Made by a program: the position numbers and the translations under genes. DNA of 64,000 bases from an uncultured Methanosarcinaceae archaeon. Lineage in GTDB: Archaea; Halobacteriota; Methanosarcinia; Methanosarcinales; Methanosarcinaceae. The DNA lies in assembly GCA_963727895.1 (NCBI GenBank), contig CAVSHT010000004.1, forward strand, positions 416,001-480,000, read 5' to 3'. A model generated the notes under the pieces. That model was not told the origin of the DNA, searched no databases, and worked only from the letters and a program-made list of their open reading frames with translations. Shown one piece after another: positions 48,365-53,041 of the stretch (position 1 is the first letter of the stretch; each line of letters opens with the position of its first letter).

Positions 48365-48766
48365 ATGATCGTTGTGGCAGATAATGATTTTACATCCAAA
48401 GACAACGAATTTAAGATAGGAGAGGTTGAATATGAAATGGTAGAGCTTTTAAGAAGGCTGAATATTAACAGGCCAGTTGCTCTCACCCTTGCTTGCCTCT
48501 CCAAAGGAGAGGAAATTTCTTCCCAATGTATCGAAATGGTATCAGGGTTAAGGCAGCCAGAAGTTAGCATTGCAATGAGGTATCTTCTAGAAAATGATTG
48601 GATAGACATGAGGGAAGAAAAGAAAAATCAGGGCAAAGGTCGACCAGTTAAATTGTATAAATTAACGGTGCAGATGGAAACAATCATTAACTCAATAGAA
48701 GAAGACATAATGGCCGAAAGCAAAACTGTGCTTCAGAACATAGAGCGCTTAAAAAATATTTCCTGA
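48365..48766 (+). CDS. wHTH transcriptional regulator (COG4738/Msr-like), divergent from hdrA
   Basis: IE..SGLRQPEVS.AM..L...W......GKGRP.K.Y.L motif. Confidence 0.85.
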   Translation: MIVVADNDFTSKDNEFKIGEVEYEMVELLRRLNINRPVALTLACLSKGEEISSQCIEMVSGLRQPEVSIAMRYLLENDWIDMREEKKNQGKGRPVKLYKLTVQMETIINSIEEDIMAESKTVLQNIERLKNIS

Positions 48767-49567
48767 TATTGACTTAAATTCCAGAATCATCAAGAAATAA
48801 TCCAAATATCCTATTATAAAATATGAGTCTGGATTAATAACTTTAGATAAAACTTAAAAAATAATATATAAGAACTAGAACTTTTAATAGAATTGTAGTA
48901 CTATTTTAAAAGTTATACGATCTCTTAATTCTATTCCTGACATCTCTTTTTTCATAGAATCAAAGTTTCAAAAAAGTCAAACTAAGAATATTTCAGGGAC
49001 AGAATATATATTCAAAAATTATCGAAAAGAAACATCTCAATAGAGATAAAGAGTTCATCTCATAAACAGAATAAACTTTTATAGTAATAAGGACCTAGAA
49101 CTCTTTCATACAATCCATATAAGTTTAGAGATTTAAGGGTAGAAAATAATCACGTTTATCCCAGGTCATCCAGAAGATGAAATATTTCTTATTTCAATGT
49201 TAAATATTAGACTTACTTTATGATCAAAATAATTCAACAACCCATAACATAGAAAGCACATGATACTTTAGAATATAGTTCGAGTTTAAAGCAGCTTTTG
49301 AATTTCAAACAAACCTTAAATTGAGATACGGACTTATTCGTGGAGATTGTTTTAAAAAATAGTTTAAATGTAGTGATTATAAAACTTTAAAAGAATAAAC
49401 TTTACAAATTTGATTATAAACGATAAACAGCATCATCTGAACTCTTTTTGAGTTAGCAAATCTCAAAATCACTCAAAAACTTAGATATAAATCAACAAAT
49501 ATAAAAAATGATAGAATAAGTAAATATTTATATTAATCGACTCTATAATGGTCCTTTGGGTGATTAA

Positions 49568-49981
49568 ATGGTAGATGAAAGTGGTTCAATCATGGAACTT
49601 TCTGACACAAATGACCAGAGTCCTATAGTAATAGGATCAAATGAATACGAAATGATAGAATTACTTAGAAAAATAAATGTCAGTAGACCAATTGCTCTTA
49701 CACTTGCATGCCTTGCTAAAGGAAGAGAAATTTCATCTCAGAGTATTGAAATAATATCAGGATTAAGACAGCCTGAAGTCAGTGTTGCAATGCGGTATCT
49801 TCGAGAAAACAACTGGATAGATATCCGTGAAGAAAAAAAATCAAAAGGAAAAGGCAGGCCGATAAAGCTATACAGGCTTACAGTCCCAATGGAATGCATC
49901 GTTAGCAAGATAGAAGAAGAGATAATAGCTGAAAGCAAAATTGTGCTTAGAAATATAGAACGTCTGAAACACCTTGCCTAA
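49568..49981 (+). CDS. Paralogous wHTH transcriptional regulator (COG4738/Msr-like)
   Basis: Same LRQPEVS and GKGRP motifs; clearly homologous to 48365-48766. Confidence 0.85.
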   Translation: MVDESGSIMELSDTNDQSPIVIGSNEYEMIELLRKINVSRPIALTLACLAKGREISSQSIEIISGLRQPEVSVAMRYLRENNWIDIREEKKSKGKGRPIKLYRLTVPMECIVSKIEEEIIAESKIVLRNIERLKHLA

Positions 49982-50277
49982 ATTATTCATTAGAATTATA
50001 TTTCAGGCATTGATACTTAAACATAGTTATATACTGTTAGAAAGTATATTTCTTCATGAACTGCCCAAAATGCAATAGTTCCAGTCACAAAAAATGGTAT
50101 AGTTGATGGGCGTCAACGGTACAAATGCCATGATTGTGGATATAACTATACAGTATAGCTAAAATCAACTGCTTTTTCCGCTTCTGTAAAAAGACAGGCT
50201 TTACAACTCTATCTTGAAGGATTGGGCTTTCGCTCAATAGGAAGAGTTTAGCATGAAAGTACATGAGGAGATTATCC

Positions 50278-51543
50278 TCACGTGCTCTCTTGATCCTTTT
50301 TCCCCATAATCGCAAATATTTCACTAATTATTTTAATCCGTTCATCAACCGAAAAAATCTCAGTCTCAATAATCTTTCTCTTTTGGATTTCTCCCTTTTG
50401 ATATCCGGTTTCATCTTCGTCCATCTCATCGTTTGTAATAAGATGCCATAGTATCGTTGCAATTTTCCTTGCTAAGGCAATAATTGCTTTTGCATGTCCA
50501 ATCGACTTCTTTTTTCTGTTAAAAAACTCTTTTAACCTGCTATTCTTCTTTCTTGCTGCTGCTTGAGCAATCTGTGTCAGAATCCACCTTGCTACTTTTG
50601 ATCCCCTCTTTGTGATTCTGCCGTTATAGTATTTAACTGCAGATTGATACACATTAGAAACTAGACCAAGCCAAGAAGCAAGCTTATTTCCAGAAGAAAA
50701 ATCCTTAAAGTTGCCTATTTCAGCAAGTAAAATTGCCGCACCAAGTTCCCCTATACCTGGAACTGACATTAAAATCTCCATTTCTCGCTTATGATTTCGA
50801 GAAGCATAATTGAAAATTTCTGTTTCTAAAGCTTCGAGTTCATCATCAAGACTTTTTATGAGTTTCAGACAGATCTGAAGTCTGAATGCAGCACTTTGAG
50901 AAATTTCTCGATCAAGAATTTCTCTTATCTGAGCAGCTTTTTTCCGAACATTTGGAGAGAGGCTTGCAATAATCTGATCAACACTCTTACCTGAAGAGAT
51001 TCCTAATAAGATCATTCTGCCATTCTTGCCAAAAACGTCTGTCAGCACATTATTCAGGTGTAGCATTTCAGATGCAAGAATTGAATTTCAGATGCAAGAA
51101 TTGAGTGAGCTTTATTTTTTAAATCTGTTCTTTTTTGTACAAGTGTTAACCGAAGTCGAACATATGATCTAAAATCTATATGATCCTTTGGAAAAACTCT
51201 TGATGGCTGAATCATATTATTAAGTGCAAGTTGTGCAATGACTTCTGAGTCAATCTTATCTGTTTTTGTATGGGTAAATACCTTCATATCTCGCGCATTT
51301 CCAACTATCACAGTTAGATGCTTTACCAATGAATCATGAATCGGAACCCAAAAGTAGCTGGTTGATTCATATGCAACAACATCACATTTTTCTGATATTA
51401 CCCAATTTTTAAGGGCTAAAATTCCTTCATCATCTCTGTTGAAACGTTGCTGTTGTTTTTCACCAGATCTACTGAAAATTGTAGCAATGAAAAAGAGTTT
51501 GTGAATGTCTAAACCACAAGCTTTGTTTATGACTTAAATCAAA
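50278..51543 (-). pseudogene. IS110 DEDD recombinase, inactivated
   Basis: CGLDIHK, YEST, KTDKIDS, SVPGIG, YQSA, ITKRG and ALARK motifs; TAA at codon 3 and a 20-bp tandem duplication (about 51065-51104) causing a frameshift. Confidence 0.9.
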
Positions 51544-51561
51544 TTAGATCACCAAATTTAT

Positions 51562-51777
51562 TTGGGCAGTGGAATTGCCTAAAAGGCCAATTTAGCATCC
51601 GTGATCAAAGTCACACTTGAGCCTTCGATGGCAATTCACTGATTAGTTTTAGAACGGTTTTGAAAAACCAAAATCAAGACAACCTTACTGCCCAAGGTAA
51701 TGAGGGCTTAATAGTCAAAAAAAAGAACGGAGAGTACTTTCATTAGTTGTGCTTGTTATTCGAAGAATATCATGTGC
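51562..51777 (-). ncRNA. Candidate IS110 bridge RNA (target- and donor-binding loops)
   Basis: Enclosing stem 51562-70/51687-95; one loop holds AGTTTTAG (target match), the other TTTAGCAT (element-junction match). Confidence 0.65.
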
Positions 51778-52306
51778 GTTTTAGGGGTAAGTCATGTTTC
51801 TGTCCAAAAATGGATAAAGAAATTTGGTCAGGAGTTAGAGAACCTAAAAAGTGAAAGTGAGATATCTATTGTTGAAATGGATGAAATGCACACTTACATC
51901 GGTAACAAAAAAAATATTGCTGGATCTAGATTGCTGTTGATAGAGTTGGGAAAAAGTTCATCAACTGCTCTTTTGGCAGCAGAGGAACGGAAACTGGAAA
52001 ACTACTCTGGGAAAAAGTGAAGAAAAAAGAGATTGGAGAAGTGATGACAGATCACTGGAGGGCATATGCAGAGTTTCTTCCAGAAAAGAGTCATACTCAA
52101 TCAAAAGCAGAAACATTTACAGTTGAGGGATATAACAGCATATTGAGGTATTTTCTGGCAAGGTTGAGAAGAAAGACAAAGTGTTATACAAAAAGTCTTG
52201 AAATGCTAAAGTACTCGGTTATTATATTGATGAAATAAAGAAATAAAGAACTAGATATATTTAAGTAACAATGTCATATTTCATAAAGAACTTTATTTTT
52301 TAGAAT

Positions 52307-52392
52307 GAACCTATCATAAAGTCCATTCAAATATCCTATTGATGACTTAAATATGAGATTCAAAACTCAAATTTTGAGTTTTGGATAGGTTC
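52307..52392. mobile_element. Shortened MITE related to the 130-bp family
   Basis: GAACCTATC ... TTTTGAGTTTTGGATAGGTTC. Confidence 0.5.
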
Positions 52393-52399
52393 ATAGCTT

Positions 52400-53041
52400 T
52401 TACAGCATTATAACGGCTTTTACAACAATATATCCAAATATTATGAAGCCTGCTATGTATAATGCATCTGTTTCTGTGTTTGGCATTTCATAATATTCAC
52501 ATTGAATAGATTTAGAGTTTGTTTTATTCAATTCGTTTTTTAACCAGTATAAAGTCAAAATAACTACTACTCCAAATCCTAAAATTTCAGGAACATAACT
52601 TTCCGATAACTGAAAATTAAATGACCTATTGAACAGTACTAATAAATATTCTAATCCCGTACGATCCACAGAATTTTTGGGAAAACTCCATCCTAAAAGA
52701 GGCCAGAATAAAGTTCGAGGATTTCCCCACATCTGGTCTTCCATAAGATGGAAAAATGAGCCTGAAGCAAGAGAAAGAATTCTAATGTCCCTTCTTTTAT
52801 CATACAAGTGCAAACCGATAAACAAAAGAGAAATAGATAATATTAGAGTGTGACCTATAATGCGTCCATTTGCCAGAGTCGAAGAAAAAATAACCATACC
52901 TAGAGGTTTGTCTAGAATGTCAGGAAATAGGGCTCCAAGGACAAGATACTTAGGATCTATGATAGTTTTTATTTGATGGGTAAAGACACAAAGAACAATA
53001 AATACTCCAAGTGTAATACCAATATGTCCAAACAGAAGCAT
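52400..53041 (-). CDS. Membrane-bound metal-dependent hydrolase (YdjM-like)
   Basis: FGH, FPDILDK, GHT, HL.ED and LFWP motifs. Confidence 0.82.
   Translation of the reverse strand: MLLFGHIGITLGVFIVLCVFTHQIKTIIDPKYLVLGALFPDILDKPLGMVIFSSTLANGRIIGHTLILSISLLFIGLHLYDKRRDIRILSLASGSFFHLMEDQMWGNPRTLFWPLLGWSFPKNSVDRTGLEYLLVLFNRSFNFQLSESYVPEILGFGVVVILTLYWLKNELNKTNSKSIQCEYYEMPNTETDALYIAGFIIFGYIVVKAVIML

Follow-up and report, generated by a model that had tools for sequence, protein, structure and literature searches.

To our knowledge, the recombinases guided by bridge RNAs or seekRNAs are the only ones in which a single RNA programmes both the target and the donor. Experimental work has been devoted to a few bacterial elements (IS621, ISCro4/IS622, ISEc21, ISEc11, and ISPpu10). 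All comparisons with described systems made here and below draw on excerpts of the cited papers. The target loop of IS621 is composed of a stem, the LTG (A50-U58), a stem-loop, and the RTG (G77-G80; PMC11208158), while the LTG and LDG read the bottom strand and the donor is the RE-LE junction, written LD-core-RD (PMC11208158, PMC11208160). Within the wider family, the non-coding region lies downstream of the gene in IS1111 types and upstream of it in IS110 types, with transposases of 330-350 aa in the IS1111 group and 395-455 aa in the IS110 subgroup proper (PMC11187229), and members of the IS1111 group possess subterminal inverted repeats of 7-17 bp (Durrant 2024, PMC11208160).

Bridge RNAs have been predicted in 85.7% of the ISfinder IS110 elements (Durrant et al., PMC11208160), and a 2026 preprint reports 86 covariance models for 32,190 bridge RNAs, among which many differ from that of IS621 (10.64898/2026.10.21.760802); the RNA described here may already be within these two catalogues. 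For the archaea, 662 IS110 recombinases have been reported by Vaysset et al. (bioRxiv 10.1101/2024.06.21.599552), and the passages of that preprint drawn on here do not describe their RNAs. A literature search found no report of a bridge RNA in Methanosarcina, and none of the publications on IS110 in Methanosarcina concerned guide RNAs as judged by title or abstract.

An IS110-family element in an IS1-family transposase gene

A pseudogenised IS110-family insertion sequence occupies 1528 bp (50250..51777, minus strand) of the window, the whole 64,000-nucleotide stretch of DNA analysed, with the ends (left GCACATGAT..., right ...CTTTCATGCT) placed by comparison of junctions. The insertion target is an IS1-family transposase gene on the plus strand, the left half of the interrupted element lying at 50056..50249, based on comparison with uninterrupted sites, and the right half, which contains the DDE_Tnp_IS1 match (E 6.2e-10), at 51778..52238. 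The assembly from which the window derives (G000; 3.67 Mb, 84% complete) has 19 full-length and two near-full copies of the element at 93-100% identity, and 198 uninterrupted IS1-family sites, 114 of which read CCCCTAAAACTCTTC and 41 of which read CCCCTAAAAATCGTC. For an assembly of this size, at least 198 uninterrupted copies of the IS1-family element represent a very large IS expansion.

When the 198 empty sites are compared with the occupied sites, an ambiguity of 3-4 nt (AAA or AAAC) is left at the junctions. AAAC (GTTT on the plus strand) adjoins the left end at 51778..51781 (minus strand; flank-match overlap and empty sites) and a second copy adjoins the right end at 50246..50249 (minus strand; junctions and empty sites), and, as far as these junctions allow the site to be placed, the crossover, with its putative core within AAA, must fall inside the 4-nt repeat. 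Left junctions end in CTAAAAC in 21 of 23 cases and in CTACAAC in the other two, all 24 right junctions start with AAA, and at least eight left flanks have no likeness to IS1. As in the IS110 family, insertion is site-specific and lacks a long target duplication, with a short core common to target and donor. Eight own-genome copies (L009, L011, L013, L014, L012, L016, L018, and L020) have an IS1-like flank on a single side, four on the left only and four on the right only, which suggests rearrangements between copies or half-matched recombination.

The two ends of the element differ in length: the left end is non-coding, 247 nt long, and carries the RNA, and the right end runs about 28 nt past the stop codon. 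A 10-bp inverted repeat is present, the inner copy ATGAAAGTAC (51734..51743, minus strand) sitting 34 nt inside the left end and its subterminal partner GTACTTTCAT (50253..50262, minus strand) ending 3 nt from the right end; relatives possess an analogous pair (CATGAAAAAC / GTTTTTCATA).

The remnant of the recombinase gene (50278..51542, minus strand; TTG start at 51540-42) has the N-terminal DEDD RuvC-like and C-terminal Tnp domains of the IS110 family, the window copy itself being broken. Its ORF pieces match Transposase_20 (PF02371, E 2.8e-25) and DEDD_Tnp_IS110 (PF01548, E 1.1e-12), and the motifs GLDIHK, ESTSDFW, KTDKIDSE, and YQSAD are conserved in the recombinase. An earlier note on this DNA had reported two visible lesions, and there are exactly two: a change from GAA to TAA at codon 3 after the TTG start (51534-36) and a frameshifting 20-bp tandem duplication at 51065-51104. 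Among the 19 own-genome copies with anchors (four further copies without anchors were left out of the count), the 20-bp unit occurs twice in 15, four times in one, and once in three. The duplication is common to 16 of the 19 copies examined, and therefore the form that multiplied is the non-autonomous one with an intact guide-RNA region, presumably mobilised in trans. The window copy is unable to make recombinase and, like most copies in the genome, would be mobilised only in trans.

Among the recombinase frames of the genome, the longest (390 aa, L018, C4:393128-394297) matches the NCBIfam model NF033542, 'IS110 family RNA-guided transposase', at 261 bits (cut-off 140) and the IS621 transposase 8wt6 over the C-terminal domain (E 3.6e-9). 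In this frame Y replaces the first D of KTDKID and a stop comes 26 codons early; even this best own-genome copy is probably inactive, and no fully intact recombinase copy was found in the 84%-complete assembly. Genomes from the same genus (G004, G012, G029, and others) possess intact copies with 416-aa open frames, equivalent to 414 aa when counted from the conserved TTG start, at 80-84% identity; in G004, G029, and G170 the element is present in 4-18 copies. A tblastn search of the protein against plasmids for IS110/IS1111 grouping returned a best identity of 33% and uninformative names.

Upstream of the insertion sequence, the window also contains two paralogous small ORFs on the plus strand (48365-48766 and 49568-49981; 133 and 137 aa), one of which has a sub-threshold ScpB-like match (E 0.0042).

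Predicted structure of the leader RNA

Based on the fold, the consensus structure, and the covariance model hits, the non-coding left end would encode a bridge RNA of about 154 nt, bounded by the helices P0 and P1 (51548..51701, minus strand). The outer helix, consisting of P0 (AUUACC/GGUGAU) and P1, encloses two internal-loop domains. The 5' strand of P1, UUGGGCAGU (51687..51695, minus strand), pairs with the 3' strand ACUGCCCAA (51562..51570, minus strand), with a GC pair replaced by an AU pair in 8 of 27 sequences. The minimum free energy (MFE) fold of the window RNA (-45.5 kcal/mol, z -2.65, with 2 of 200 shuffles equally good) agrees with the outer stem and two domains drawn in the earlier note, and the strings quoted there lie where it had placed them (TTGGGCAGT at 51562-70, ACTGCCCAA at 51687-95, AGTTTTAG at 51645-52, TTTAGCAT at both 51591-98 and 50247-54, and the reverse complement of TCAAGTGTG at 51612).

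The target loop, which as previously noted lies 5' of the donor loop, is closed by a stem in which GGUUG (51680..51684, minus strand) pairs with UAAUC (51641-51645) in 100% of the cells; as GGUUG/UAAYC this stem is conserved, with a G:U pair in 16 and a G:C pair in 11 of the 27 sequences. It is followed by a 5' strand, UCUUGAUUUU (51670..51679, minus strand), complementary to the top strand of the core and right target, an inner hairpin, GGUUUUUCAAAACC (51656..51669, minus strand; pair 30:39 is UA in 21, UG in four, and CG in two sequences), and a 3' strand, UCUAAAAC (51646..51653, minus strand), which equals the top strand of the left target and core plus one more base. The TGATT/AATCA stem that had been proposed for this domain is complementary in the window copy, but in relatives TGATT falls within a hypervariable guide, and as a closing stem the pairing was rejected for lack of conservation. 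Nor does the 'compact, asymmetric guide layout' suggested earlier apply, as the 5' strand of this loop constitutes a second guide, complementary to the right flank. The donor-loop domain (51572..51637, minus strand) comprises an outer stem (GAAUUGCC/GGCAAUUC), a second stem (GAAGGC/GCCUUU), the 5' strand UCAAG, the hairpin UGUGA-CUUUGA-UCACG, and the 3' strand AUGCUAAA (51591..51598, minus strand), equal to the right end plus core. As in bridge RNAs and seekRNAs, the result is a structured non-coding region with two internal loops beside a recombinase gene.

The consensus of 27 distinct RNAs from the genus has 37 pairs with 96.2% of cells paired, compared to 29-50% when the partners are slid by 1-3 columns. 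Double changes were seen in 4 of the 37 pairs within the genus, a count reached by 50 of 500 shuffles, and, judged from these alignments, the genus stems are too conserved for much covariation. Distant members have compensatory changes in their helices, including GGCUG/UAGCC in the target-loop closing stem, GGGAC/AUCCC, and GCGUC/GACGC, the last type in the donor-loop hairpin, and two of them fold with z-scores of -8.34 (L032) and -5.24 (L048). A scan of positions 49000-53000 against Rfam 15 (E up to 10) returned two chance-level hits and no bridge-RNA family. Two members (L091:1393-1618 and L092:1394-1621) have an insertion of about 90 nt that replaces the loop of the target-loop inner hairpin, with the remaining RNA intact.

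Upstream of the RNA, a T-run (51717..51724, minus strand; 15 nt from P0 and 21 nt from P1) is kept in relatives. Because of this conservation, and because an insertion of about 170 nt in two elements (L042 and L071, from another family of the same order) is located upstream of it, the T-run is a possible archaeal TATA-like promoter element. In both of these elements the insertion sets the outermost ~45 nt of the left end apart from the module made up of T-run and RNA, and therefore the terminal recombination site and the RNA gene behave as separable modules. RNA libraries contain related sequences: one contig from the transcriptome of a cultured relative (X15, record 9, 50815-51703, 58 differences) covers the leader up to 51703, and contigs from a metatranscriptome (X2) together cover it to the left junction, both being assembled contigs that carry no start, end, strand, or proof of transcription. 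Each of 24 sequencing runs contained at most 0.21 of the sampled words, and the four compared with the element consisted entirely of assembled contigs.

Covariation of the guide strands with target and donor

Individually, the matches between loops and DNA that had drawn attention to this leader are weak, as the earlier note itself cautioned: AGTTTTAG occurs five times on the plus and twice on the minus strand of the window, and TTTAGCAT five and four times. The evidence that they exceed chance comes from covariation across relatives. Junctions and loop strands were extracted from 53 elements, no two of which had the same pair of flanks (21 own-genome elements and 32 from relatives in the same genus). 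These elements are kin by descent, some perhaps spread by IS1 transposition or rearrangement, and do not represent independent events. For this reason, the tests were run per guide type, with guide types shuffled among flank groups 20,000 times and composition kept.

The 3' strand of loop 1 tracks the left (5') flank (47.7 observed compared to 28.3 +/- 3.2, 14 guide types) and the reverse complement of the 5' strand tracks the right (3') flank (104.1 compared to 86.2 +/- 3.7, 16 guide types), with none of the 20,000 shuffles as high in either case. A wrong-side control, pairing the right guide with the left flank, was null (15,244 of 20,000 shuffles as high). The 3' strand has the pattern GU-NNN-AAAAC-U and repeats the 8 nt with which the left flank ends. 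Identity is complete at positions -1 to -3 (43/43), remains at 41/43 from -4 to -6, and falls to 37/43 at -7, 28/43 at -8, 11/43 at -9, and 1/43 at -10, and at positions -6 to -8 three or four letters are used in both guide and flank. On the other side, the reverse complement of the 5' strand equals the sequence past the right end at 9/9 positions in L073 and 8/9 in each of L036, L034, and L039; across all right flanks the match per position is only about half, and the right flank of the window copy fits poorly (5/9). In L036 and L073, the guide UUCCAAAAC faces the flank TTCCAAAAC and the reverse complement of the 5' strand, AAATCTAGT, faces the flank AAATCTAGTG, while in L041 guide and flank are both CAGAAAAC. 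The strands of the target loop are thus complementary to both strands of the target and vary with it.

These results bear on the proposal that the leader simply provides the transposase gene with a structured 5' UTR or a promoter region, with matches to flanks and ends that are coincidental or reflect A-rich composition. The sequences are A/T-rich and each 8-mer occurs 7-9 times in the window, as such a proposal would have it, but the permutations kept composition and still gave 0 of 20,000, the wrong-side control was null, and the guide CACAGAGUC of a distant member (L048) is not A-rich and has an identical flank. An ordinary leader is accordingly extremely unlikely.

The donor loop shows the same behaviour in one of its two arms. 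Its 3' strand, AUGC[U/C/A]AAA, is an exact copy of the right end plus 3 nt in 37 of 43 elements, and the one variable base (T/C/A) agrees with the right end in all 43. Loop sequences covary with insertion sites and with this end of the element, the comparison that the earlier note had proposed. The left-end arm, for which there are two possible registers, shows no covariation. UCAAGUGUG does match the left end at 7/9, as pointed out previously, but neither that register (UCAAGUGUG with CGCACATGA) nor one shifted by 2 nt (AUGUG with CACAU, UUU with AAA) covaries in relatives. Left-end positions 1-4 read GCAC, ACAC, AAAC, GAAC, or GCAT, with positions 1, 2, and 4 varying without matching changes in the RNA, and a G/A/C column in the 5' strand of the loop varies without matching changes in the DNA.

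Single-stranded DNA guides are used by IS200/IS605 elements. Covariation alone cannot separate an RNA guide from a DNA guide, and the leader could conceivably act as DNA, either through guides of that kind or as a set of protein-binding sites. Against this, the helices tolerate G:U pairs, which stabilise RNA helices (16 sequences, compared to 11 with G:C, and one further G:U that is invariant), the two-loop layout matches that of bridge RNAs, and the recombinase belongs to a family with experimentally shown RNA guidance (PMC11208160, PMC11208158, PMC11187229); action as DNA is therefore considered very unlikely. With the covariation described above and the public titles of the near relatives, which name Methanosarcina, the earlier assignment of the leader to a bridge-RNA gene of an IS110-family recombinase in a methanogen holds. 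Taken from comparative sequence data, the leader is very probably a genuine bridge-RNA gene of an archaeal IS110-family element in which the guide order is reversed.

Guide order relative to described systems

The element shares with IS621 a recombinase with DEDD and Tnp domains, an RNA gene in a long left end upstream of the recombinase gene (PMC11208160, PMC11208158), a target loop located 5' of the donor loop, guide strands that in the target loop, and putatively in the donor loop, each read a different strand of the DNA and extend over the core, and a short right end; like IS621, it inserts with no long duplication of the target. It differs from IS621 in the order of the guides within each loop, a feature missed in the earlier note: in both loops the complement of the top strand comes first, the reverse of IS621. 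Further, the core of IS621 is CT, whereas the crossover here is in an A-run, within AAA; the protein is about 414 aa compared to 328 aa in the solved chain, with only the C-terminal domain aligning well; the two domains are closed by the outer helix (P0/P1) and meet it in a three-way junction; the 10-bp inverted repeat is present; and the promoter, if any, must be archaeal.

Could the guide order in fact be the canonical one of IS621, with an apparent reversal that arises because the secondary structure, or the choice of left and right, is mistaken? Guides rich in A/U can pair in other ways, the MFE folds of L032 and L048 pair the two strands of loop 1 with each other, and the IS621 geometry used for comparison comes from the text of PMC11208158 and PMC11208160 as opposed to their figures. 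The comparative data argue in the other direction, as every member has the inner hairpin between two variable segments, with compensatory changes, and in all 14 guide types of the genus, eight distant archaeal members, and four bacterial ones the strand equal to the left flank follows that hairpin on its 3' side. The left flank abuts the end with the RNA gene, as it does in IS621 (PMC11208158), and the donor loop has the same reversal. A canonical order is consequently judged quite unlikely, and the reversed order is well supported by the comparative data from these sequences.

The same order, with the complement of the top strand 5' of the complement of the bottom strand, is found in the seekRNAs of IS1111 types (ISEc11, ISKpn4, and ISPa11; PMC11187229). 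These elements also possess subterminal inverted repeats (PMC11187229), to which the 10-bp repeat here, with its left copy 34 nt inside the left end, may correspond. The IS1111 types differ in having the RNA downstream of the gene and transposases of 330-350 aa, compared to an upstream RNA and about 414 aa here, within the size range of IS110 proper (PMC11187229). Neither the downstream guide RNA nor the short left end of the IS1111 group is seen, with the RNA in the 247-nt left end and a right end of about 28 nt. Given an upstream RNA, a protein of about 414 aa, and an IS1111-type guide order, the element therefore combines the placement and size of the IS110 type with the order of the IS1111 type.

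Two other IS110-group elements offer partial parallels. ISEc21 has an upstream non-coding region and targets a conserved stretch of an IS3-family transposase gene, much as the element here uses one of the IS1 family, but in its seekRNA the match to the bottom strand is 5' of the match to the top strand, the reverse of the element described here (PMC11187229). For ISPpu10, a bridge RNA has been mapped to a repeated genomic target, though with a CT core, according to the pairing logic of IS621, and in another subgroup (bioRxiv 10.64898/2026.03.19.712850).

Proposed mechanism

In the mechanism proposed here, a DEDD/Ser recombinase of about 414 aa would use the bridge RNA to recombine the circle junction with sites that read CCTAAAA[C/A]T. 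The predicted circle junction is ...CATGCU-AAAC-GCACAUG..., with the general form ...CTTTCATGC[T/C]-AAAC-[G/A]CACATG..., and crossover would occur inside the A-run; in G000 the corresponding target sequence is that in the abundant IS1-family transposase gene. We infer that the guide acts as RNA, and the same applies to the start and end of the transcript, the exact core dinucleotide, and the recognition of the left end (the right donor arm). Each 3' strand ends in a base (C in loop 1 and U in loop 2) that may provide a handshake-like base pairing after strand exchange. The layout is geometrically equivalent to a complex of the IS621 type whose sites have been rotated by 180 degrees with respect to the genes. 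When read in this way, the terminal C of the loop-1 3' strand equals the first base of the left end and the terminal U of the loop-2 3' strand equals the first base of many right flanks, and both would sit at the places of the handshake bases of IS621.

Distribution and distant members

A covariance model built from the RNA was searched in genome samples and identified the RNA in 21 of 151 order-sampled genomes (three of six families and seven of 23 genera) and in six of 151 phylum-sampled genomes, three of these outside the family. In archaeal relatives, the match is directly upstream of the gene. Public contigs with a protein at 36% identity or above belong, according to their titles, to Methanosarcina, Methanoregula, Methanospirillum, Methanoperedens, Methanothrix, Jordarchaeia, Nitrososphaerota, and Bathyarchaeota.

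The same guide logic is found in relatives at 37-61% protein identity and in bacterial homologues at 23-26%, and among distant members (37-47%) the layout is kept while the letters differ. L048 and L049, at 37-38% protein identity, have CACAGAGUC as the 3' strand and ACCACAGAGTC as the flank; for L048 this guide compares to the flank CACAGAGTC, and ACACAGA in the right flank has its complement in the 5' strand. In both, the donor strand AUACCAG equals the right end ...CATACCAG (ATACCAG in L049). Matches of the 3' strand to the left flank were likewise found in L095 (CAAACAAAC), L096 (TAAACAAAC), L101 (TGCATAAAC), L094 (ACCAAAAC), and L097 (CAGTAAAAC), and AAAACTAA is found in L095 both in the right flank and in the 5' strand when this is read as its reverse complement. 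The donor strands of L094 (ATAGGAAAT) and L046 (ATAGAAAA) equal their own right ends.

The bacterial homologues produce weak hits to the model (13-20 bits), all of them directly upstream of the gene. Left-side matches are present in L191 (TTAAAAAAC), L158 (TAAAAAAC), and L173 (CAAAAAAC), and the reverse complement of the 5' strand matches the right junction in L173 (AAAGCTG in both), L191, and L134, while the 5' strand of loop 2 has only partial matches of 5-6 nt to the left end. Two of these elements, L134 and L191, are located inside the apparent end of OrfA (...LLKK and ...FLKK) of what read like IS3-family host elements, at an A AAA AAG-type run that resembles an IS3 frameshift site.

A broader reading is that the RNA represents an undescribed architectural class of bridge RNA, belonging to a large IS110 subgroup with recombinases of about 414 aa in archaea and bacteria, and the first archaeal bridge RNA to be documented. 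This reading is tentative and on balance somewhat doubtful. Its archaeal hosts would include Methanosarcina, Methanoregula, Methanospirillum, Methanothrix, and Methanoperedens, and possibly the Asgard and Bathyarchaeota contigs. The class could be characterised by an RNA upstream of the gene, the IS1111 guide order, and target guides that are both 8-9 nt long, and could further be marked by a crossover in an A-run, a last base of the 3' strand that is pre-set for the partner DNA, and an archaeal promoter.

The natural covariation indicates that the logic of bridge RNAs also operates in methanogenic archaea, with permuted guide strands, and that the order of the strands is not tied to the placement of the RNA gene. 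Comparative data now exist for how the complex reads DNA, and intact orthologues exist in mesophilic archaea. The biology of this genome is explained as well: the element is a specific parasite of the transposase gene of an IS1 family, and frameshifted copies of the element multiplied while keeping the guide RNA. The advance is incremental because the window copy is dead and computational predictions of bridge RNAs already cover most IS110 elements. Lastly, a public contig of 1855 nt from an alphaproteobacterial bin (L115, Oricola sp. MAG) contains an element at 83% protein identity to those of Methanosarcina, which is probably a mis-binned repeat contig and not a transfer between domains.
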